IMG/VR virus record: IMGVR_UViG_3300020207_000022
Location: 1,834-65,833 of that record
Reading direction: 5' to 3' (one strand)
Length of the DNA stretch: 64,000 nt
Source: a virus
Lineage: Duplodnaviria; Caudoviricetes
Positions 865 through 21,829 of the stretch are shown piece after piece (the first letter of the stretch is position 1; each line of letters starts with the position of its first letter). The position numbers and the translations under genes were made by a program. The notes beneath the pieces are model-generated. The model made no database searches, was not told where the DNA came from, and saw only the letters and a list, made by a program, of their open reading frames with translations.

Positions 865-904
865 GAACGAATTGTGCTTTAAATTATCTAAAGTGGAGAG
901 GTTT

Positions 905-1480
905 ATGTTTAGATATTTGTTTCTGTGTATGTTGTTATTGGTGGGTTTTGCCTCGCCTACACTTGCACAAGATGCTGCTGATTGTCCAGAAGGTTACATA
1001 TGTACTAGAGCCGATACTGACAGCACTGTTACTACAAATGGTAACATGAACACTAAAATTGAACAACCACCCCCTTCTGCAATTTCGCCATCTTTTAGCG
1101 CAGGTAATAATAGTGACTTATGTACTATCGGTGTTGCAGGAGCAGTACAAACACAGATCCTTGGTATATCTGCAGGTGGAACATTTACTGAGGAAAATTG
1201 TCAAAGACTGAAAAATGCTAAAGTACTGTATGATATGGGTATGAAGGTTGCAGCAGTTTCTGTTATGTGTCAAGACGAAAAAGTATTTGATGCAATGATG
1301 CACGCTGGCACTCCATGTCCATATAATGGAACTATTGGTGATGCGGCGAAACTAGGATGGGAATCTCATGTCGAAGAGACACAAAAAGAATTGGATGGAA
1401 TGGGGCCGTTATTCGAGTCACCTCAACAAGCTGCTCCTGTCATTGGTGGTGGTTTGTTGGCCCTCTTACTCTTCCTCTGA
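905..1480 (+). CDS. secreted Cys-rich protein with C-terminal hydrophobic anchor
   Basis: signal peptide MFRYLFL...PTLA/QD; conserved-looking PPSAISP...DLC...NC..LK...AGTPCP core; C-terminal GGGLLALLLFL; GGAGAGG RBS. Confidence 0.8.
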   Translation: MFRYLFLCMLLLVGFASPTLAQDAADCPEGYICTRADTDSTVTTNGNMNTKIEQPPPSAISPSFSAGNNSDLCTIGVAGAVQTQILGISAGGTFTEENCQRLKNAKVLYDMGMKVAAVSVMCQDEKVFDAMMHAGTPCPYNGTIGDAAKLGWESHVEETQKELDGMGPLFESPQQAAPVIGGGLLALLLFL

Positions 1481-2315
1481 AAGTATTGCACCATATTACG
1501 GATACACGGGCAACGCTGCAGCAGACAACGCACTTAAGTGGTCAATGGGAGATATCTTACCAGAACCGCCAGGCGTCTATATAGATAACGTTCTATATCA
1601 GTATAGGATAGACAAAGAAACGGACGATACAGTTACTGTGTATGTCTACAACGAGAATGCAGACGGAACTGGTTATATCTTCAGAGACAAAGAAGATTGG
1701 AAACCAGGCAGTCTTGCGGGAACACAGGTAACAAAGATCGTACCATTAGGAAGGTTACATAGGGATGTATTCGGAGACGGAGGAATCGACGTTGAAGGAG
1801 ATGGATCTGTTTATGATGCTAATGTGGTTTATACTTATAGAGTAGAACCATGTTATGATCCACAATTCGATCCGAATTGTCCTGGCTATGAAGTTCAGAT
1901 TCCAGATATCTATAATGGATCTGATATTGTAATTTATGATGCTATAGAATCTGGTGACGCAGACCGTGAACAATATGCAGAAAATGATGAGGAATCCTCA
2001 GAAGATGAACTAACTGAAGAAGAAAAAATGAAGTTAGAAGAGGAAGAAGAGGAAGATCGCAAAAACAGGTTAGAACAAGCTTTGTTCGAAGCAGGACGTG
2101 CGGCATTATTTGCAGAAGCACTTGCAATGTCTCAACTTAAAGACTCCGTACAAGTTAATCTGAATTCATATTATGTAAAAAAAATTGATGGCGGAGTATA
2201 CAATGACACAGTCGTATTGAATGATAAACAATTACCTGAGAACAAACGTGGTTTAAGAAATGGACTGGCACAACAATTGTTGCATCAACAAATGGTTGAT
2301 TCGCAATATAATTAA
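1368..2315 (+). CDS. exported or membrane-anchored protein (beta-rich N-half, CxDPQxDPxCPGY motif, acidic coiled coil)
   Basis: N-terminal hydrophobic segment LLLSLVVVCW; overlaps the upstream ORF; exact start uncertain. Confidence 0.75.
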   Translation: MSKRHKKNWMEWGRYSSHLNKLLLSLVVVCWPSYSSSESIAPYYGYTGNAAADNALKWSMGDILPEPPGVYIDNVLYQYRIDKETDDTVTVYVYNENADGTGYIFRDKEDWKPGSLAGTQVTKIVPLGRLHRDVFGDGGIDVEGDGSVYDANVVYTYRVEPCYDPQFDPNCPGYEVQIPDIYNGSDIVIYDAIESGDADREQYAENDEESSEDELTEEEKMKLEEEEEEDRKNRLEQALFEAGRAALFAEALAMSQLKDSVQVNLNSYYVKKIDGGVYNDTVVLNDKQLPENKRGLRNGLAQQLLHQQMVDSQYN

Positions 2316-2335
2316 AACAAAAACAGGGAGCAACC

Positions 2336-2845
2336 ATGTTTAAAAAATTACCTATCTTCGTAGCTGGAGCGTTAATGAGTTCGGTAATCTCTGCAAGCGC
2401 AAACGAAACTCCGATTAACGGTACAGTACAATCTCGTTGTATAATTACAACGGATACTGCAGGTACATACGCTAACCCCAATGCATACACTCTTACAACG
2501 TCTCCTACAGACGGTGGTGAACATGCTAGGATCCGTGTAGATGTGTCACTTGCAGATGCATACTATGTTGAAATTACACCCCCAACCGAATTTTCATCTG
2601 CACCTACTTTGCCAGATATAGTCACATGGACTGGGGATACAGAAGTGGATACTGTTTCAGATGCAACTGGAATGGGATCATATGAATCAAACAAAGTTGA
2701 ACTAGGTCTAACAGATCGTTATGATATGACTGCAACTGGTTCCACTTGGTTTAAAACATCTTCGTCTGCAACTATGGGTGGGTCAAAAGCTTTCCCAGGC
2801 GGTAACTATACTGCACTAGTATCAGCGGAGTGTATTGCACAATAA
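2336..2845 (+). CDS. secreted fimbrial/pilin-like (SCPU/Csu-type Ig-fold) protein
   Basis: signal peptide ending ASA; N-terminal INGTVQSRCII; Thr/Ser-rich beta pattern; C-terminal GGNYTALVSAECIAQ. Confidence 0.55.
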   Translation: MFKKLPIFVAGALMSSVISASANETPINGTVQSRCIITTDTAGTYANPNAYTLTTSPTDGGEHARIRVDVSLADAYYVEITPPTEFSSAPTLPDIVTWTGDTEVDTVSDATGMGSYESNKVELGLTDRYDMTATGSTWFKTSSSATMGGSKAFPGGNYTALVSAECIAQ

Positions 2846-2855
2846 TATAATTATC

Positions 2856-3263
2856 ATGAAACATTATGCACACGTAATTGCGACTATATTCGCCTTTTTA
2901 ATATTCGGATTATTTTCGAGTATTGCACACTCACATGAGATGGTTCCAACATATCCAAAGTTGGTGCCGTCTATCATGGGAGAGAACCTAGTCACAACTA
3001 CTATGACAATGTTCAATAAAAGACCAGAAGTAGAATTTTACGAGTTCGCTGTTTTCGATAAAGACTGGTCTCCAATTCCATTCGTATCTAAATATAAGAT
3101 ATGGAAGATACCGTATTTAAGTACGGTAACTGTGGAAATTTATATGCATAGAAGTGTAGCTAAGGACGCATTATATATTTGTTCTCGTTCTAAGTTACGC
3201 AAAATAGATTTAACTAGAACAGCAGTTTCATCAAGAATCTGTTCTAAAATTGTTGAGAAGTGA
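2856..3263 (+). CDS. secreted Ig-fold, pilus-chaperone-like protein
   Basis: signal peptide ending AHS/HEM; MTMFNKRPEVEFYEFAVFDKDW resembles a PapD-like N-domain; two Cys near the C-terminus. Confidence 0.45.
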   Translation: MKHYAHVIATIFAFLIFGLFSSIAHSHEMVPTYPKLVPSIMGENLVTTTMTMFNKRPEVEFYEFAVFDKDWSPIPFVSKYKIWKIPYLSTVTVEIYMHRSVAKDALYICSRSKLRKIDLTRTAVSSRICSKIVEK

Positions 3264-3706
3264 GTAATACTATGAGAACGTTTGCTATGGCAATATGCCT
3301 TTCTTTGATTGGCGCACATGTACATGCGGAATCTAGTTCTTTAAACCTATCCTTGCCAGGCATGGGTAGTACTTATGGATCTGACAGTATTCGCACACAA
3401 GATGGAGTTAATTGTGAAAACTCTATTGGTGGTGCGACAAATCTAGAATTCGGTTTGACTGGAATAATTGATAATGCACAAAGTCCTTTTGATAGAAATA
3501 ATGGTTTTGATTCAAGTAGGGATATTGGCGTTTATGCAAGGATAACAATTCCTTTAGACAAACCAAAACAACGTATTAATTGTAACACCCTATATGAATT
3601 AGAACTGAGAAAGAAAAGACTAGAAGTTTTGAAACTCCAAGAAGAATTAAATGCTTTGAGAAGATTGAATGCTCAGCAACCAGTTGAGGAACAGTTCGAA
3701 AATTAG
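3260..3706 (+). CDS. secreted protein, Cys-beta-hairpin-Cys plus coiled coil
   Basis: signal peptide ending VHA/ES; NC...LEFGLTG...IGVYARITIPL...INC; C-terminal coiled coil. Confidence 0.75.
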   Translation: MSNTMRTFAMAICLSLIGAHVHAESSSLNLSLPGMGSTYGSDSIRTQDGVNCENSIGGATNLEFGLTGIIDNAQSPFDRNNGFDSSRDIGVYARITIPLDKPKQRINCNTLYELELRKKRLEVLKLQEELNALRRLNAQQPVEEQFEN

Positions 3707-3720
3707 GGAGTAAAAATTAA

Positions 3721-4434
3721 ATGTCTGTATGTCACAAAATGGCAAAACTTGCCGCACTTGCATACTTCGACGGTAAAGAGGCGAAAGAAGCGGTCAAGTC
3801 TCTGGGATACACATATCATAAATTCTTTGAACATAATGGTGCGCAATGTCATGTCGCATACAACAAAAAAGAATATGTTATTGCATTTAGAGGCACAGAA
3901 CCAGACGAACTATCGGATGTACTCGCAGACTTAAATGCATGGCCTGCAGGTGCAATGACCCATGGTTTGGTTCATTCAGGTTTTAAAGGAGAGACAGATA
4001 AAATCTGGGCGGCTCTTTTAAGACACTATAAAGAATTCGCAAAAAATAAAAAAGTATATATCACAGGTCACTCACTTGGTGGGGCGATGGCAACTATCGC
4101 ATGTTCACGTTTAGAAGAGATTGGTAAGATTGAACAGTTGACCACATTTGGATCTCCAAGAGTTGGGACACGCAAGTTTGTGAAAAACATTGCGACACCA
4201 CATATGAGATTCGTAAACAATAACGACATAGTTACAAAAGTTCCCTTGTTGTTGATGGGATATAAACATCATGGGAAATTGCAGTATATCAACTTCTATG
4301 GGAATGTGCGTAAACTAACTACGTGGCAAATGATTAAAGATCGTTGGCGTGGTTACAAGTCTGGTGTTCTTGATGGTGCATTGGACCACGGAATGCAGAA
4401 CTATGTAGAATTCACTAAGAAGTTGGATTATTAG
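3721..4434 (+). CDS. lipase class 3 (alpha/beta hydrolase)
   Basis: IAFRGT, VHSGF, GHSLGG nucleophile elbow, TFGSPRVG, NNNDIVTKVP, DH motifs. Confidence 0.9.
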   Translation: MSVCHKMAKLAALAYFDGKEAKEAVKSLGYTYHKFFEHNGAQCHVAYNKKEYVIAFRGTEPDELSDVLADLNAWPAGAMTHGLVHSGFKGETDKIWAALLRHYKEFAKNKKVYITGHSLGGAMATIACSRLEEIGKIEQLTTFGSPRVGTRKFVKNIATPHMRFVNNNDIVTKVPLLLMGYKHHGKLQYINFYGNVRKLTTWQMIKDRWRGYKSGVLDGALDHGMQNYVEFTKKLDY

Positions 4435-4435
4435 T

Positions 4436-4759
4436 ATGTGGGAAATGATACACAGAATGTTCGGTGATACGTTGTGGATTTACACAGCGATTGCCGGATC
4501 TTTAATTGGTGCAGCATTTCTTGCTTGGTTTAGAAATACACACGCAGCCTTATGGTTGATGAGTTTATTTGATAGATCTATGGATCACTTAGTTGATCGT
4601 TTTGGATGGGACTTCCTGCAGGATGATCCCATGGCGTGGCGAAAGCGATATCCAAAAGTAACATCAAAGATCGACGAGTTAGAAACTCGTATCAAGGAAC
4701 TCGAAACATGGCAGAAAAAGACCTCGGCGAACTCACCGAAAACTTCGAAGAAGAAGTAG
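4436..4759 (+). CDS. small membrane protein (holin-like)
   Basis: one TM segment LWIYTAIAGSLIGAAFLAWF and a basic C-terminus. Confidence 0.6.
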   Translation: MWEMIHRMFGDTLWIYTAIAGSLIGAAFLAWFRNTHAALWLMSLFDRSMDHLVDRFGWDFLQDDPMAWRKRYPKVTSKIDELETRIKELETWQKKTSANSPKTSKKK

Positions 4760-5349
4760 AGAATCTTAAGAACACCAAAATGAAGTTGTTCGGGATCACT
4801 ATGACCCCGACAACCATTGGTGCAGCCTTCGCAATAGTAAGTGCGATAGGTGGATCTCTCTATGGGGGATTTGAAGTATATAAAGACTACATGGACATGA
4901 AAGAGATTGTTCAGAATATTGACGTTGATGAAATTCAAACTCGCAACAACGAGATTGAAGTATTGGTAGGTAACGCAAAAGCAGAACTTGAAGTTCGCAT
5001 TAATTCAATTCAAAAACAAATTGATGATCTAGAAAAACGTGTCCGTGAAAACAAAGTGGATACGAGGGATCAACTCAACCAAATGGACTCTCAAGTTCGT
5101 AGGGTTGAAAAACTTGTGCGTGATACTGAAGCAGACGTGAGACAAATCATTCAGAACGCAGAAGAACGTTTTGACAATAAACGTGACGCACTACAAAACC
5201 AGTATGATAATAAAGCGTCTGCGCTAAGAGAATCTAATGATAGTCGTATGACTGATTTAGAAGATAAAGTCGAAAGAGACTTAAACGAACTAGAACAAAA
5301 CCTTAACTCAAAACTACAGAGGGCGCTAGATAATCCTCTAGCGAATTAA
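4708..5349 (+). CDS. single-TM long coiled-coil protein
   Basis: likely start ATG 4708 after AAGGA; TM IGAAFAIVSAIGGSLYGGF; about 150-aa coiled coil. Confidence 0.75.
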   Translation: MAEKDLGELTENFEEEVENLKNTKMKLFGITMTPTTIGAAFAIVSAIGGSLYGGFEVYKDYMDMKEIVQNIDVDEIQTRNNEIEVLVGNAKAELEVRINSIQKQIDDLEKRVRENKVDTRDQLNQMDSQVRRVEKLVRDTEADVRQIIQNAEERFDNKRDALQNQYDNKASALRESNDSRMTDLEDKVERDLNELEQNLNSKLQRALDNPLAN

Positions 5350-5510
5350 AAATGGAATGGAAAAAGGTTGAAGAATACTGGGCGTTCGATACAACACCAG
5401 AAGAGTTGAATGAAAAGGGTATTATTTTCATTCCTCATAGGGGGTTTAAGAATAAAGCAACAGAAGAAAAAAGAGAGAAGGTATGGAGACCACACCTTCT
5501 CAATAAAGAT

Positions 5511-7053: not shown

Positions 7054-7082
7054 AATATAATGCTTCTACAAGAGAAAGTCAA
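7054..7082 (-). promoter_or_regulatory. sigma70-type early promoter
   Basis: TTGACT-17-TATATT with A-tracts. Confidence 0.8.
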
Positions 7083-9702: not shown

Positions 9703-9779
9703 TGGTCTTGGTGGCAGGATTCGAACCTGCGATCTTCTGGTCCCAAACCAGACGCCTTACCAGACTAGGCCACACCAAG
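9703..9779 (-). tRNA. tRNA-Pro(UGG) with encoded CCA
   Basis: cloverleaf: CTTGGTG/CACCAAG acceptor, TCTGG-TTTGGGA-CCAGA anticodon arm, GGTTCGAATCC T-loop. Confidence 0.93.
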
Positions 9780-16200: not shown

Positions 16201-18348
16201 GACAGTCAACCCACCAAATTCTGCAGAGTTTGTTGTTGTAGAACCGTTTGTGGTAACTTGATCCAAGTTTAATGTGGATGTAGGAATGTCGTTTGCAGTG
16301 ATGTAAGTATTTGCGTCCCAATACCAGTTGTTTGCGTTATCTTGTCTGAGGAAACCTTCACCATCCACAATAAGACTTGTTGTATGTGCATTAAAGATGG
16401 GATCTGTTTCTTCTTCAAGGAATGTATTTGCTTCGTATGACCAGTTTCCACCCCCATCGTTTACAAGTCTACCAGTACCATTAATTATATTATATGTGGT
16501 GTGAGCGGTAAATACTGGGTCTGTTTCAGATCCAGCTGCAGTCAGATATGTGTTCGAATCATAGAACCAGTTGCCCGAACCGTCTTGTTTAAGGAAACCA
16601 AGACCATCGTTGATATTCGCAGTAGTATGCGCAGAGAAGACGGGATCCGTTTCAACGAGAGTGTTTGCAGTTAGATATGTGGTTGTCGCAATGTAAGACC
16701 AGTTGTCTGCACCATCATTCACCAAAAGACCGTTACCGTTACCAATGTTGTACGTTCTGTGAGCAGTGAACACTGGATCTGATTCTGCACCTGCTGATGT
16801 TACATAAGTGTTTGTATCGTAGAACCACTCACCACCAATATTTTTAAGGAAACCTTCTGTGACAGCTATGTCAACGTTCGCAACTGCAGACGCAGAGAAG
16901 ATTGGATCGGTTTCGTTTACAATGTAATTCTGCAAGTCAGTGATTTGACTTTCAGTGATACGAAGATCTGCTTGGTGTTGAACCACACTTGTATTAGAAA
17001 TATATGCATCTGGTACAATCGCCCAAACAACAGATTGCGTCAAGTCATTAGATTCTGCACCTGCAGATTGTGCAATATATGTTAACCCTGTAGCTTGGTT
17101 GTTAACTGCGACAAGTTGGTTACCTGCACCAACATAGTTTGCAGGAGTGTCCGAAAGTGCAAGAAAAGACGTTGCACCACCACCACTGCCGGAAGGCGCA
17201 TCTTGAAAACTGAATGCACTACCATTGGAAGTTAGAATTTGACCATTTGCGCCAGAACCACCCACAACATCAACCAATTCGAGTAAAGATGCATTTGAGA
17301 TGCCCGCATTTGTCAAATCTGTGGGAATATTCTGTAGACTTGTATATTCTCCATCGAATTCTGAATAGTCAGTACCTGCCACAGCAGCACTAATATTTCC
17401 CGCACCATCTGACTTTACAATACCTGTAACTGCGCCAACAACAGGATCTGTTTCAGATCCACCGCTACCGCCTAATGACACCCACTGGAAGTCTGAACCA
17501 TTCCATTGCAAGTATTCATTAGAGTTTGCAGAGTTTGTGTTTAAGTGCGAACTAACATCAGTGTCACCATAAGAACCAGTAACTGTTAGGTCACCAGAAC
17601 CAAGTATGGATGCGCCATTGATTGTTTTAATGTTTGTACCAGAAACCAAAATTTCTTGCGCATCTGTGATACCATAACCAGACAAAGTTGTGGGGGCACC
17701 AGTTAGTGAAGAGAATGCACCATCAAACGCATCGGTAATACCGAACCCTGCAATTGTAGTTGGTTTATTTGTAAGAGTAGTCCAGTCTGCAGTTGCAGTA
17801 ACAGTTAAATCACCCGTTCCAAGAATAGATTGGCTGTTGATTGTCTTAATGTTTGTACCAGAAACTAGAAGCGCTTGTGCATCTGTAATACCGTATCCTG
17901 CAACAGTTGTTGGGGTTCCTGTCAAAGAAGAGAATGCAAAGTCTTGTGAAAAGGTAGCGTTGATTGTAAGCGTGTCAGTCGTCGCATTTGTTGTAAGACT
18001 GATGTTTGTACCTGCGGCAAAATTAATAGTGTCCGTTGTGCTGTCTGCAGCGATAGTTGTTTGACCAGATACTGCAAAGTTACTGAATGCATTTTGGTTC
18101 GGATCACCAGATCCACCACCGCCACCAAGACCACCCCAACCGCCGTTGATGTAACCTTCAAACTGGTTTAGTTGAGTGTTATATCTGAGAAATCCGTTCG
18201 TTGGGGAACCGTCTCTTTGTGCAGTCGTTCCTGCAGGGATTTGAATCGAACCAGTCGAACTAGTGCGTGGTGCGATTGCTTCTAAGTTGTCATCCATCTC
18301 TTGGTACGTAAGGGATGAACCTTTAGTAATTCGTTTTGTAATAGCCAT
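13237..18348 (-). CDS. long tail fibre / structural fibre protein (1703 aa)
   Basis: N-terminal KGSxLTxxEMDxN and PxGTTAQR..G..RYNT...FEGY anchor motifs; PTTxxGYGITDA and ETDPVF repeats; G/S/T-rich. Confidence 0.85.
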   Translation of the reverse strand: MAITKRITKGSSLTYQEMDDNLEAIAPRTSSTGSIQIPAGTTAQRDGSPTNGFLRYNTQLNQFEGYINGGWGGLGGGGGSGDPNQNAFSNFAVSGQTTIAADSTTDTINFAAGTNISLTTNATTDTLTINATFSQDFAFSSLTGTPTTVAGYGITDAQALLVSGTNIKTINSQSILGTGDLTVTATADWTTLTNKPTTIAGFGITDAFDGAFSSLTGAPTTLSGYGITDAQEILVSGTNIKTINGASILGSGDLTVTGSYGDTDVSSHLNTNSANSNEYLQWNGSDFQWVSLGGSGGSETDPVVGAVTGIVKSDGAGNISAAVAGTDYSEFDGEYTSLQNIPTDLTNAGISNASLLELVDVVGGSGANGQILTSNGSAFSFQDAPSGSGGGATSFLALSDTPANYVGAGNQLVAVNNQATGLTYIAQSAGAESNDLTQSVVWAIVPDAYISNTSVVQHQADLRITESQITDLQNYIVNETDPIFSASAVANVDIAVTEGFLKNIGGEWFYDTNTYVTSAGAESDPVFTAHRTYNIGNGNGLLVNDGADNWSYIATTTYLTANTLVETDPVFSAHTTANINDGLGFLKQDGSGNWFYDSNTYLTAAGSETDPVFTAHTTYNIINGTGRLVNDGGGNWSYEANTFLEEETDPIFNAHTTSLIVDGEGFLRQDNANNWYWDANTYITANDIPTSTLNLDQVTTNGSTTTNSAEFGGLTVGGVAVALETANVATFSNGAGYITLADLSASGDISYNDTTGVFSANLQSTGITLSDLSANNEVPSGNGSLSYDSSTGLFTFTPPDLSGLGGGTETDPVFTASAVANVVASSGDGFLRNVGGEWYYDTNTYITSAGAGGATVFGDLTDVDLTGLADTDLIQYNGTNSAWEVSTLDSVMTSGLGTAGAGANEVLSWTGSGFDWVAQSGVTLNDFSVTTAAAGSAALSYANGVFDFTPPDLSGYLTSYTETDTFATVTGRGSISASTITANGNINVVGEAFDGGRIILNSAQSGSPSGSSSNWSYIDVERGVLPNVAIRWNEGFDRWEFTNDGTNYIAFPTGSSTLDEVLTAGDESDTPLTLFRSTSGNINNGSLVFENRDVTPNINSSVGDIRFFGDGLDEGGSTLTLTEYARISVKPSQVSSITVNDSFGYIDLQAKLDGGLETFVKVGIDPFNPNDPVVNNIGTHATKPFYAGPDFYLIDEVDTANDIYSDTNIALQFVGYDTTTGQSATRATMYFQNNMLRTIAHDMNAATPYNTWTQLTQRPISAGGLSFTSVVGGTATSYDVYTDQNADAKVRSIVSDDQNLLRFSAYANTEVMSDRSDFGGFNGGASGNAEIVPGNEIYGALAFFVFGDANNGTASQNSYIPEGHTEEVPHGMGILRDSSQHISGTPRWDPFGGPDFRMTLNSTARDASYFFGATTTFNQSHPTNLILTNSDYTPEDDTVIGRLNFRAGETTYTTYKDYAQIIVTAEDTTAGDYDGSMKFNLAINGTDTTVLELNSLNSGEPLVNFKAADGTNVGYVKPFSNTGLTISADTDTGTRDLRLSGSNVLIYSSLDIDIGNSLSQDNVNIGSQSAAGGTPINMFGKVTFNDITTEKTNALTGATGVVTHNLNDGAVFDHTSLAADFTANFTNVPTTVSRTIGVALILSQGGTAYMPTAVQIDGSAQTILWQGGSAPSGTASGTDIVSFTLIRSSGGAWKVIGSATSYS

Positions 18349-18713
18349 TAAGTACTTTCCCCAAATTCGTTGTAGTATACACCTACATATGAGCTATAAG
18401 TTGGTGAAGACGGTATCGAACCTTCTTCGAAATAATTGTCGTCGACATAATATATATCTACGTAAGAATACGCTGCTTCTATAACATATCCCACATCTAC
18501 ATACCCAGGCGTTAAGTAAAATGCAGTAGTGTCTTGAAATTCGCCTGGGTTCGGTTCAACATAATTGAAATCAACAAATTCAAATAACTGTATTTCATTA
18601 TTACTTGGTGTCGACGTAAAGACATATGCCTGATCGATTAACGCCTGTTTTAAGACTGGATCTGTTTCTGCAGCAATAGCTGCGAGTAACGCTGCATAAT
18701 CTGGATTAGTCAT
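18348..18713 (-). CDS. structural-region protein
   Basis: between PAAR and the fibre; Tyr/Val-rich YV repeats. Confidence 0.65.
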   Translation of the reverse strand: MTNPDYAALLAAIAAETDPVLKQALIDQAYVFTSTPSNNEIQLFEFVDFNYVEPNPGEFQDTTAFYLTPGYVDVGYVIEAAYSYVDIYYVDDNYFEEGSIPSSPTYSSYVGVYYNEFGEST

Positions 18714-19007
18714 TTAACTACCTACGTTAACTTTAGGTGCTCCTGATTCCGCTTGGTTTGGAACCCAAGACCCATGACCCCCTGTTGCGTCTCCTGCCCT
18801 ATGAACAAATGCACCTACCGCTTTTACTTTTCCAGAACTACCAGTCGCAGGATCTCCACATGCAGTGGAGTCGCCTTTACGAATTACTGGATCACCTTGT
18901 GCCTCAACCTTATTCTGACCCGCAGTATATGGAGTTTTATGAAAAGGGTTGGGAGTAGGACTTGCGTGTCCTACGTGGAAGTGTGCAGTTGTGACTATCC
19001 TAGGCAT
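18714..19007 (-). CDS. PAAR baseplate spike-tip protein (gp5.4-like)
   Basis: 97 aa; RKGDSTACGD..GSSGKV...HRxGD, His residues. Confidence 0.85.
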   Translation of the reverse strand: MPRIVTTAHFHVGHASPTPNPFHKTPYTAGQNKVEAQGDPVIRKGDSTACGDPATGSSGKVKAVGAFVHRAGDATGGHGSWVPNQAESGAPKVNVGS

Positions 19008-19011
19008 AATT

Positions 19012-19263
19012 TTACCAAGTATTAATTTTGTTTTGTATCGACCTCGAACCTTGGTGGTGCGACTTTACATTTTTAAGAACATCTCTAAAACCATCATCTG
19101 GTTTGCGTAAACCCATTCTTACAGGATCACCAATAGATGGCGGTCTATTCAATAATTGTTGCAACTCAGGATGCGTATTTTTGTATTCATCCAGTTCAGA
19201 AATTTTCATTGTGATTTCAAATTCTTCATTAGTATTTATATTACGAAAGTTGTAAGTAGGCAT
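19012..19263 (-). CDS. FmdB-like small protein
   Basis: MPTYNF...KPDDGFRDVLK, typical of T4-like phages. Confidence 0.7.
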   Translation of the reverse strand: MPTYNFRNINTNEEFEITMKISELDEYKNTHPELQQLLNRPPSIGDPVRMGLRKPDDGFRDVLKNVKSHHQGSRSIQNKINTW

Positions 19264-19293
19264 GACATAGTCCTCATCAATATCTGTTTATTA

Positions 19294-19300
19294 TATTTAG
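19294..19300 (-). promoter_or_regulatory. late promoter variant CTAAATA
   Basis: located just past a terminator and ahead of the FmdB-PAAR-fibre operon. Confidence 0.6.
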
Positions 19301-19307
19301 GTAATAC

Positions 19308-19336
19308 AAAAAAAGACGGTCAATTTCTTGACCGCC
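19308..19336 (-). terminator. rho-independent terminator
   Basis: GGCGGTCAA-GAAA-TTGACCGTC followed by T7. Confidence 0.9.
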
Positions 19337-19342
19337 AGTCTT

Positions 19343-19390
19343 CTGATCTAATCCAAAGAGAAAGGAAAAAAGGAAACTAAATTAGATCAG
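19343..19390 (-). ncRNA. candidate 3'-UTR RNA: 14-bp stem with 20-nt pyrimidine loop
   Basis: CUGAUCUAAUUUAG-[UUUCCUUUUUUCCUUUCUCU]-UUGGAUUAGAUCAG directly upstream of the terminator. Confidence 0.55.
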
Positions 19391-19633
19391 GTATTCATCA
19401 TTCTCATTTTCCCACGCACTGATTGCGTTTCTGAAACCTAGTCCCAACATACCATCATACTCTGACATATCTTCCCAAACTTCAATTACTTCTTCGATCT
19501 GCGCTTGAGTTAATTCTGATGGACAATCCACACCAAAGTGTTCTTGGATATGACCATACGCCCATTCTGTTACTTCACCTTCAATCCAATCAAGCATCTT
19601 GTGAGGTTTGTGGATAGTAAATTTTTCTGACAT
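19382..19633 (-). CDS. acidic hypothetical protein
   Basis: GGAGA RBS before MSEKF. Confidence 0.7.
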   Translation of the reverse strand: MSEKFTIHKPHKMLDWIEGEVTEWAYGHIQEHFGVDCPSELTQAQIEEVIEVWEDMSEYDGMLGLGFRNAISAWENENDEYLI

Positions 19634-19646
19634 TTTATTCTCCATA

Positions 19647-20231
19647 TTATCCAGTGATTAAGTTGTAGATCTCTTTCCACCCTTGAACACGAGTGGCTTG
19701 ACCTGTGTAACCTGCGTTGTGAGTGTGTGCCATAAGGATACCTTCACAACCAACATTAATACCAACGTCGACGTTCTCAGGTTTGTCTTCAACCCAATAA
19801 CATCCTGTATCCCGATACTCTTCCATGACTTCGTCTTTGTCTGCACCTGTGTCCAAATACACAAACCGTTCAAAGACAGTGTCACCAAACAACTCCCGAA
19901 GGTTTTTGCTCCGTAAGTGTTGAGCGTAAGTATCATTACTCAAACTAGTGATTGCGTGGAAAACATATCCATGTTCTTCGTGCAGTTTTTTGACATACTT
20001 TACTGCGTCCCGAAGAGGAGCAAGTTTCCGCATCCACGCACTCTCGTTGAACATCCGAATCAACCGTTTGCATTCTTGTTTTTCAATTCCGTACTTGACA
20101 TCCATTTCATAAATGCCTTCTTGTACAACTTGATAACCGTGCCGATGCATCCACTGACCAAAAGCGTACTCCCAGTCTAGGACGACACCGTCACAGTCTG
20201 TCAATATTGTTTTCTCTTTTATTGCTATCAT
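19647..20231 (-). CDS. HAD-family 5'(3')-nucleotidase (T4 30.2-like)
   Basis: DCDGV motif I, ITS, WVEDKPEN. Confidence 0.85.
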   Translation of the reverse strand: MIAIKEKTILTDCDGVVLDWEYAFGQWMHRHGYQVVQEGIYEMDVKYGIEKQECKRLIRMFNESAWMRKLAPLRDAVKYVKKLHEEHGYVFHAITSLSNDTYAQHLRSKNLRELFGDTVFERFVYLDTGADKDEVMEEYRDTGCYWVEDKPENVDVGINVGCEGILMAHTHNAGYTGQATRVQGWKEIYNLITG

Positions 20232-20262
20232 AATCTACTACTTTCTCATTACTTACATTATT

Positions 20263-20291
20263 AATATAGTGTATTTGATAACAAATGTCAA
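20263..20291 (-). promoter_or_regulatory. sigma70-type early promoter
   Basis: TTGACA-17-TATATT with three A-tracts. Confidence 0.85.
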
Positions 20292-20319
20292 GAGCTTTTT
20301 TTGATTTTTTTTGATTTTT

Positions 20320-20496
20320 TTATGCGTCTCGAAAATCTTTAAAGTTCATATGTTTTTGTTTTCGATTTTCATTCTCACGCAGTTTGCGTTTCTTACCACG
20401 TTGTTTTTCCCGAATGCGATCTTCATTAAAGTTTCCCCATTCGTCATCGTCAAAACGATTTTTTTGCTTGCGAAAATTTTTGAACTTTTTAGACAT
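20320..20496 (-). CDS. small basic protein (58 aa, not in the ORF track)
   Basis: MSKKFKNFRKQKNRFDDDEW...; fills the gap in the operon. Confidence 0.6.
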   Translation of the reverse strand: MSKKFKNFRKQKNRFDDDEWGNFNEDRIREKQRGKKRKLRENENRKQKHMNFKDFRDA

Positions 20497-20501
20497 CTTT
20501 C

Positions 20502-20936
20502 TTAACTCAGTTTTAGTGGATCAATAAAAATTCGTGGAAGTCCTTCTTCCACAGTTTGTTTGGTCAGACCTTTCACCTTTTCTCTTGTGATCATCTGACA
20601 CAACATCTCAGAGTCTTCATCACACACATCTTCTAGCAGACCAATAAACAACGACTCACGTTTAGCTTGTTGTAGATTATCATAACCGCCTCCCTTTACG
20701 AAGATGCGTAGCTTCCTTGCTTCATGATAAAGCATCATTCCTTCGTCTGAAGTTGCATTCTCCTTGTAGGGTGGTGCAGTGTCTGGAACGAGGAATTCAA
20801 TATTCTCGTCATACCATAGACGAAGAATAATGCGTAGAGGAACAGAGTCGTGTTTTTGCAACCATTCTATTTTTTGTTTCTTACTTTTAAGTTTACCTGC
20901 TTGGTTCACGATTTCAGAAATCGGTATTCTCGCCAT
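20502..20936 (-). CDS. DUF6433-like conserved T4-like protein
   Basis: ISEI...K.EWL...LR.IL...D..IEF..P...PPY; RE.LFI.LLE. Confidence 0.7.
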   Translation of the reverse strand: MARIPISEIVNQAGKLKSKKQKIEWLQKHDSVPLRIILRLWYDENIEFLVPDTAPPYKENATSDEGMMLYHEARKLRIFVKGGGYDNLQQAKRESLFIGLLEDVCDEDSEMLCQMITREKVKGLTKQTVEEGLPRIFIDPLKLS

Positions 20937-20937
20937 T

Positions 20938-21798
20938 TTAAAAATCCTGTATATCAGTTAACAAATGTTTCAGTTTGTGTTTAATAAAGAAATTGAACAA
21001 ACCTTCACGTCCGACTTCTTTATCTCTATTATAAATTTCAAGAATTTCATCTTGATAATTCTGAGGGATTTCTTTTAAATCGATCATCATCTTGTTACGA
21101 TGATATCCCGAAAGAATTTCCTCATTCATTTCCTTTTCGCCACCATCCAACAGTGCGTACAACCGTTTGGATGTCATAGGACGTTGACGTTCGCCAATTG
21201 CAAGACAGTTGTCTGCAGACAAAACATTTGGAACACCGTCTCCTGCGTCACCCTTCAAAATGTGTTCTTTGAGGTATTTATCAGGATTATCATTTCTTAT
21301 CCAACGTTTCCGTACTGGGTCATATTGTCCAACGTTTGCATAACTATGCAATTGGATATAATCTTTATCACCAGACAAAATCAAGAACTTCTCGCCACCA
21401 GTGTTTAATTCTGTTCCATTATCATGAACAATAGTACCAATGATGTCATCAGCTTCAACTCTATCGACGTTAATTACCTTGTAAGGAAAACTTTCGTCGA
21501 TCTCATCACGGATCTTATGTATCACTGTGAATAGTTCATTCCAATCGATGTCAGACTCATTACGAGACTTCTTACGATTTGCCTTGTAGTAAGGGAAGAT
21601 GTCTTTGCGCCATACATTCTTACTATCACAACATATTACAATTTCACCCCATTCTTCTACAAACTTTTTTCGATTGTATCTGATAGAGTTTAAAAACATG
21701 TGACGGATCATACTCTCGTCAATTTCTACATTATGACCACCTGAGTTCGCAAAGAACGAGGCGAGCATAACTTGGTTAAAATCTACTAAGATTGCCAT
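20938..21798 (-). CDS. rnh: T4-type RNase H (5'-3' exonuclease)
   Basis: ILVDFNQV, WRKDIFPYYKANR, EADDII, SGDKDYIQL, GDxGDGVPN. Confidence 0.93.
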   Translation of the reverse strand: MAILVDFNQVMLASFFANSGGHNVEIDESMIRHMFLNSIRYNRKKFVEEWGEIVICCDSKNVWRKDIFPYYKANRKKSRNESDIDWNELFTVIHKIRDEIDESFPYKVINVDRVEADDIIGTIVHDNGTELNTGGEKFLILSGDKDYIQLHSYANVGQYDPVRKRWIRNDNPDKYLKEHILKGDAGDGVPNVLSADNCLAIGERQRPMTSKRLYALLDGGEKEMNEEILSGYHRNKMMIDLKEIPQNYQDEILEIYNRDKEVGREGLFNFFIKHKLKHLLTDIQDF

Positions 21799-21829
21799 AT
21801 CTAATTTCCAACAAATTTACATTATGTAC

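Follow-up and report, generated by a model that had tools for sequence, protein, structure and literature searches.

CpxQ and SroC are sRNAs derived from 3'UTRs that share the terminator of their mRNA, and MicL is reportedly another. Among the sRNAs of Gram-positive bacteria, RsaE/RoxS present C- or CU-rich loops, as LhrC is said to do. UCCC loops are described for RNAIII in PMC4615179, which also covers the alphaproteobacterial cuckoo/CcsR family (RSs0680), where 2-4 adjacent hairpins each carry CCUCCUCCC. In Staphylococcus aureus, the 3'UTR of the icaR mRNA contains a pyrimidine motif complementary to the mRNA's own SD region (PMC3868564). Here we compare these systems with a hairpin that displays a pyrimidine loop directly ahead of a terminator in a phage genome. 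Few regulatory RNAs have been described from virulent phages, and this holds especially for the large group of uncultured marine T4-like phages.

The window, by which we mean the whole stretch of 64,000 nucleotides that was analysed, has a G+C of ~39% and makes up nearly the whole of a 65,833-base IMG/VR virus record, whose completeness is put at 36%. Judged from gene content, the window bears the marks of an uncultured marine T4-like myovirus: it encodes a gp41-like helicase, UvsX, a gp32-like SSB, primase, NrdAB and a T4-type RNase H, together with a PAAR-like protein and a 1703-aa tail fibre. By the gp41-like helicase, the nearest cultured phages are only ~50-55% identical, with Stenotrophomonas, Caulobacter and marine cyanobacteria as hosts. 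The first-pass annotation had set the element in an alphaproteobacterial frame, which has no basis here, the nearest cultured phages being this distant. Searches of cultured phages with the locus itself gave 0 megablast matches to 18300-20300, only 11 weak gene-level blastn matches to 18300-21800, 0 tblastn matches to the 87-aa ORF upstream of the hairpin, and 12 records, each below 60% identity, by tblastn of the 83-aa protein encoded downstream.

Rfam 15 at the gathering threshold identified a tRNA only across the whole window and no sRNA family, AbcR-type and cyanophage motifs included. When the threshold was relaxed to E up to 1 for 12 loci (among them L001, which is the window region, L002, L014 and L015), 2 matches appeared, both elsewhere and far below gathering. 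A keyword search of the literature, narrower than a full survey, returned no sRNA of such design in T4-like phages.

The hairpin lies at the end of a short minus-strand transcription unit (Table 1). An early promoter at 20291 is followed by two abutting ORFs, which makes this an early operon of ~950 nt with the hairpin and terminator at its end. The TTGACA-type promoter pattern occurs 9 times on the minus strand against 0.20 expected, a count that 0 of 100 shuffles reach, and no promoter-like site is predicted on the minus strand just upstream of the hairpin. The second ORF, of 87 aa, has no match in Pfam or PHROG searches and has homologues at 12 viral loci (57-72% identity); its final codons, CTG ATC TAA, supply the greater part of the stem's 5' arm. 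Beyond the hairpin, the 19336-19308 element has the G+C-rich stem, short loop and U tract of an intrinsic terminator. The consensus of T4-type late promoters is TATAAATA, with the box expected ~30-40 nt before a late gene. At the position of CTAAATA, L014 and L015 have CATAAATA, and more distant relatives have the exact TATAAATA ahead of the same gene. The 83-aa gene (phrog_385) is followed on its 3' side by the PAAR-like gene and then the tail fibre gene, and all three genes downstream of the terminator look late.

Table 1. Positions of the hairpin, its operon and other elements on the minus strand of the window
Feature	Position	Strand	Remarks
sigma70-type early promoter, TTGACA-N17-TATATT	20263..20291	(-)	heads the operon ending in the hairpin
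GAGAAAG-type ribosome-binding stretch	20247-20241	(-)	in the short leader of the 20291 promoter
NT5C-like 5'-nucleotidase, 194 aa	19647..20231	(-)	operon gene 1; phrog_420, 9.1e-37; PF06941, 2.4e-08
87-aa ORF	19382..19645	(-)	adjoins the NT5C-like gene; last codons CTG ATC TAA
Hairpin	19343..19390	(-)	10 Watson-Crick pairs plus 4 pairs (3 G-U)
5' arm of hairpin	19390-19377	(-)	CTGATCTAAT (19390-19381), then TTAG
Loop of hairpin	19376-19357	(-)	20 nt, no purine, 14 U and 6 C
3' arm of hairpin	19356-19343	(-)	TTGG, then ATTAGATCAG (19352-19343)
Intrinsic terminator	19308..19336	(-)	9-pair stem (5 G-C) 19336-19315, GAAA loop, T7 19314-19308
Hairpin and terminator together	19390-19308	(-)	83 nt, with a 6-nt spacer between the two
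Late-promoter-like CTAAATA	19294..19300	(-)	~30 nt ahead of the next start codon
Late-type 83-aa gene (phrog_385)	19012..19263	(-)	SD GAGGA 19275-19271; ATG at 19263
tRNA gene	9706-9779	(-)	sole Rfam match at gathering score within the window
Second strong terminator	5462-5501	(-)	12-pair stem, T-rich tail; ends a block of minus-strand genes at its junction with the plus-strand genes 872-5349

This arrangement resembles that of the 3'UTR-derived sRNAs. The candidate RNA would comprise the final ~83-96 nt of the mRNA, with its seed upstream of the intrinsic terminator in which both end; stop codon, hairpin and terminator follow one another on one strand. By position, the element fits the class of 3'UTR-derived sRNAs that share the terminator of their mRNA, here as a candidate from a virulent T4-like phage instead of a bacterium.

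The first-pass annotation had described a 14-pair stem, a pyrimidine loop and a strong terminator, and all three are present on the minus strand where it had placed them. CTGATCTAAT and ATTAGATCAG form 10 perfect Watson-Crick pairs, and TTAG/TTGG adds one A-U and three G-U pairs. The stop codon had been assigned to these four wobble-rich pairs, which is wrong: TAA (19384-19382) sits within the 10 Watson-Crick pairs. The fold itself stands up to shuffling, with the 96-nt stretch at -29.1 kcal/mol (z -5.38; 0 of 200 shuffles equal it) and the hairpin by itself at -12.7 kcal/mol (z -3.81; 0 of 200 as good). Pairing between the hairpin and the terminator, considered as an alternative structure, amounts to only 5 pairs. 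Read-through of the stop codon was likewise set aside: the frame past TAA is open solely because pyrimidine tracts lack stops, and it runs into the terminator. Separately, the first 16 nt of the loop (19376-19361) are TTTCCTTT twice, a perfect mirror repeat that is not kept in L014 or L015. Mirror repeats of such kind can form triplex DNA, and this copy is short.

Is the structure more than a coincidence of composition? No other hairpin in the window, on either strand, combines a Watson-Crick stem of at least 7 pairs with a loop of 12-32 nt in which pyrimidines make up 85% or more. Among 100 Markov shuffles, 33 yield such a hairpin with a stem of at least 7 pairs and 0 yield one with at least 10. 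The loop belongs to the longest pure-pyrimidine run in the window on either strand (22 nt), and this run is one of only three of at least 14 nt on the strand that bears most genes. The bare 10-bp inverted repeat, in contrast, is unremarkable: the window contains 76 inverted pairs, and that of the hairpin is not among the 25 longest. It is the combination of stem and pyrimidine loop, unlike the inverted repeat on its own, that exceeds chance.

In the cuckoo/CcsR family, hairpins with variable stems likewise present a pyrimidine, anti-SD-like loop, and the allowed loop lengths of 9-27 nt cover the 20 nt of the phage. The phage locus differs in having one hairpin followed by a terminator, with no second copy in the window. 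Moreover, CCUCCUCCC is absent from the loops of the window, L014, L015 and L013, and the window loop is U-rich. We considered membership of this family and rejected it, on hairpin number and on CCUCCUCCC alike.

We examined conservation among loci that share the neighboring genes. Viral contigs contain 80 loci for the 83-aa protein (upstream DNA read for 67, of which 56 are distinct), 80 for the NT5C-like protein (37 read) and 12 for the 87-aa ORF (all read); another 80 loci for the 83-aa protein come from metagenome contigs, and 8 of these were read. The module occurs at the same junction in just two other sequences read, L014 (= L094, L413) and L015 (= L416); the three closest of the 8 metagenome loci (76-78%) do not have it. 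In L014 and L015 the 87-aa ORF is absent, and the stem, CTGCGTAA/TTACGCAG, contains the stop codon of the NT5C-like gene. The 5' arm thus belongs to another ORF than in the window, and a stop codon again lies within the stem. Relative to the window, CUG...CAG and UAA/UUA are kept, while central pairs have changed on both arms and are still paired, so that conservation of the stem, on which the first-pass annotation had staked its proposal, holds in both relatives. The terminator of L014 and L015 is a clear homologue of the window's, and CATAAATA comes next.

The loops differ in length. They measure 20 nt in the window, 26 in L014 and 22 in L015, and are therefore not coding. They contain no purine in the window, 1 G and 3 A in L015, and 0 G and 6 A in L014, and a CUUUC core is common to all three. 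At the base of the window stem, Leu is encoded by CTG, the rarest Leu codon (9% of 673); in L013 the homologous ORF ends TTA ATT TAA, with the same Leu and Ile in other codons. The rebuilt stem, the CUUUC core, the scarcity of purines and the rare CTG codon indicate selection on RNA structure. The comparative basis is small, at three homologous sequences and one analogue. The hairpin is a real, selected and lineage-restricted RNA element. That it has no function, being a chance inverted repeat beside a terminator, left from the recombination that brought the 87-aa ORF, is already disfavored and in our estimation very improbable. Inverted repeats of 10 bp are common in the window and the locus is plastic, with ORF and module coming and going, but the combined feature arises in 0 of 100 shuffles and relatives rebuild the stem on a different ORF end.

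Four equally close lineages do not have the module (L016/L017/L292/L095, L290/L291, L096, and L097/L098), and their genes lie 4-5 nt apart; the module is therefore dispensable, or optional. We scanned both strands of the window and of the loci collected at that stage, asking for a stem of at least 7 pairs that closes a pyrimidine loop of 14-30 nt with little G and is followed within 45 nt by a terminator. This recovered the design only in the window, the L002 type, L014, L015 and L329. Pattern scans added no further homologue. The terminator 15-mer occurs at 116 or more unrelated loci, with a like hairpin at 0 of 84 occurrences examined; the L014-type stem pattern hit 4 loci, the 2 known and 2 unrelated; the window-type stem pattern hit 1 unrelated locus; and the 17-mer of the L013 loop hit 6 loci, of which 3 were known contigs and 3 unrelated. 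The pyrimidine-run pattern matched five related records too often to discriminate.

The analogue is found in L002, L003 and L013, which are identical here. Directly 3' of their 87-aa ORF homologue, TTGACA-N17-TATAGT heads a unit in which a stem of 16 pairs bears a CU loop of 23 nt; another, small hairpin and then a terminator complete it, after which come an SD and the start of a 58-aa ORF. It folds at -37.2 kcal/mol (z -5.17). This unit could be a free-standing sRNA gene, or it could be a terminator-containing 5' leader of the 58-aa ORF. The 87-aa ORF is a mobile small gene in its own right: it follows the NT5C-like gene in the window, is missing from L014 and L015, and in L013 (2510-2764) is placed after a gp46-like gene and a 106-aa ORF.

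Rho, S1 and Hfq prefer pyrimidine-rich RNA, and the C/U-rich loop, kept open by the stem, might recruit such a protein from the host or the phage. Rho could act through a rut-like site immediately past the stop codon, Hfq through the loop and the U7 tail combined, and ribosomal protein S1 is a third candidate. All four versions of the loop are C/U-rich with at most 1 G per 20-26 nt, and the element begins at the stop codon, where ribosomes cease shielding the RNA. A loop of 20 nt is nevertheless short for a rut site, and an efficient intrinsic terminator 21 nt past the loop makes Rho redundant. We regard a protein-binding site as unlikely.

A class of early units in the window shares one layout. 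TTGACA (TTGACT at 7082) is separated by 16-17 nt from TATATT or TATAAT; a stretch that contains GTAA then leads to an A-rich purine block and from there to ATG. Five such promoters lie on the minus strand, at 20291, 7082, 751, 438 and 90, ahead of genes 20231, 7019, 692, 380 and one near 30, and the same leader type is present in related phages. The purine block, of the GAGAAAG type, replaces a GGAG-type SD. A generic anti-SD is a poor partner for such leaders (-5.5), so the U-rich loop suits them more closely than one with CCUCC. The Gram-positive CU-loop sRNAs are alike in presenting pyrimidine loops on stems and pairing with ribosome-binding sites; their loops, however, are C-rich (UCCC), whereas the phage loop, with its 14 U and 6 C, is U-rich and suits A-rich purine leaders over GGAGG.

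The first-pass annotation had gone further and named the leaders of genes 692, 380, 7019 and 20231 as complementary to the loop. All four matches that it quoted exist. Against the five early leaders, the loop reaches a mean of -11.6 kcal/mol, compared with -5.4 for random 20-mers, of which 0 of 1000 are as good. When the loop is instead shuffled with its composition preserved, the mean is -10.7 ± 1.6 kcal/mol, and 28.5% of 1000 shuffled loops equal or better the real one. The real loop is therefore no better than shuffled controls, and specificity beyond composition is gone: the complementarity between loop and leaders is compositional, not specific. Other tests agree. GAGAAAG is hardly enriched, at 18 copies in the window where 12.05 are expected, a number that 4 of 100 shuffles also attain. 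Of the leaders of 96 crudely called genes, that of gene 692 pairs best (-16.7 kcal/mol); we rejected it as a specific target, since ~8 separate sites on the minus strand, most of them coding, do as well or better. We likewise rejected the idea that loops are tuned to the leaders of their own phage. Cross-comparison reveals no such preference, with the window leaders at -14.9 with the L015 loop against -11.6 with their own, and the L015 loop best or near-best everywhere. Nor does the SD of the downstream 83-aa gene stand out as a partner, not being among the 25 best of the 96 leaders. The specific target list should be dropped. A more general caution follows from these controls, namely that a pyrimidine loop matching purine-rich leaders proves little alone.

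Pairing in cis, between the tail and the head of one mRNA, is a further rival. In such an icaR-like arrangement, the loop would pair with the GAGAAAG of the operon's own first gene (20247-20241) and limit its translation. The match on the same transcript exists, as CUUUCUC/GAGAAAG, a perfect 7 nt; L015 offers CUCUUUC/GAAAGAG, also 7 nt, and L014 7 pairs including one G-U. The mechanism has been demonstrated for icaR (PMC3868564). On the other side, the own leader ranks merely 22nd of 96 (-8.9 kcal/mol), L095, L096 and L097/L098 retain the GAGAAAG-type leader without the hairpin, and the L013 unit is not on an NT5C-like mRNA. The phage further departs from icaR in that its 7-nt match is not above chance, loop and leader do not covary, and its 3'UTR is just ~75 nt long, with the motif within a closed hairpin loop. 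We consider cis pairing quite improbable.

With tuned targets set aside, the reading that we tentatively prefer is a non-coding module under selection at the transcript's 3' end, most likely an sRNA derived from that end (or an RNA tail) whose loop acts as a generic, low-specificity anti-RBS element. The early promoter at 20291 leads into two ORFs, and the stem begins in the last codons of the second; it closes the open, purine-free 20-nt loop, and the strong intrinsic terminator comes next. The 83 nt of hairpin and terminator would then persist as a stable 3' fragment, that is, as a 3'UTR-derived sRNA, and its exposed CU loop would offer a generic seed against ribosome-binding sites. Such a seed may pair with A/G-rich leaders, including the GAGAAAG-type early leaders and perhaps host mRNAs, and the accumulating fragment would damp translation of the leaders it pairs with. 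We read the seed as low in specificity and not tuned to a single target. The earlier suggestion of a phage 3'UTR sRNA thus survives in part: the kept stem, the G-poor loops and the L013 analogue speak for a functional RNA, but the proposed target specificity is compositional. The conserved unit, in which a stem that takes in the stop codon bears an open pyrimidine loop ahead of a terminator, has a relative's version with its own promoter beside it and is a compact, testable candidate.

The module might instead be passive, with a loop that has no partner, and serve at the 3' end to stabilize the early mRNA against 3' exonucleases or to insulate or assist the terminator. It directly precedes the strongest terminator of the region, at the boundary of early and late genes; four close lineages dispense with it; and the loop lacks target specificity. 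A stabilizer, however, requires no open loop of 20-26 nt, and no pyrimidine run in the window exceeds that of the loop. Despite their divergence, the three loops have remained rich in pyrimidines and poor in G, and the independent L013 unit, with its own promoter, has the same loop type. We hold a passive element to be possible but doubtful.

A bolder version of the preferred sRNA reading would make it an RNA timer for early shut-off, in which the 3'-derived sRNA masks the whole class of GAGAAAG-type early leaders and spares GGAG-type late mRNAs. That class stands behind at least five TTGACA...TATATT promoters in the window and is also found in related phages. Early shut-off in T4 is protein-based, through RegA and RegB, and a timer of this kind, if true, would be its RNA counterpart. 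We think this rather unlikely.

RNA libraries contain parts of the stretch in eight metatranscriptome runs. Four salt-marsh runs were compared over 17500-21500 as contigs of depth ~2-7, from which neither the ends nor the strand nor the level of an RNA can be read, and none of this serves as evidence here. Among the pieces listed, none spans 19209-19402, a gap that carries no weight. Pieces on the 87-aa ORF stop at 19403 (X1), 19403 (X2), 19404 (X3) and 19417 (X4), with no loose end listed at these positions, and their shared end near 19403 is at most a very weak hint. One contig of X2 also joins 19857 to 20170, skipping 312 nt within the NT5C-like gene with 24 nt on the shorter side; this junction is likely a relative or an assembly artefact.

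Two further features of the surrounding DNA deserve mention. Upstream of the early promoter (20292-20330, minus strand), the window has A-rich TCAAAAAAA-type repeats, L094 has a TTGAAAAAAAA...TTTTTTTTCAA hairpin in the same place, and A-rich repeats or A/T hairpins also occur there in L095-L098. These repeats and hairpins recall the promoter-early stem-loops described for T4-type phages.

In distant relatives (for example L023, L029, L298, L036, L047, L018, L050, L035, L021 and L350), one layout recurs upstream of the homologue of the 83-aa gene: an exact TATAAATA at a distance of ~90-105 nt from the ATG, then in turn a brief segment X, a spacer, an intrinsic terminator, an SD and the ATG itself. 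Rfam found no match on six loci with this layout. The loop region of the terminator carries the complement of X, in several types that are unrelated in sequence and share the same topology. Among the 56 distinct upstream regions, 32 contain a terminator, and for 25 of these 32 a segment of at least 6 nt, lying no more than 70 nt upstream, is Watson-Crick complementary to the loop region. The layout resembles either a pseudoknot or a leader of this late gene that switches between antiterminator and terminator.
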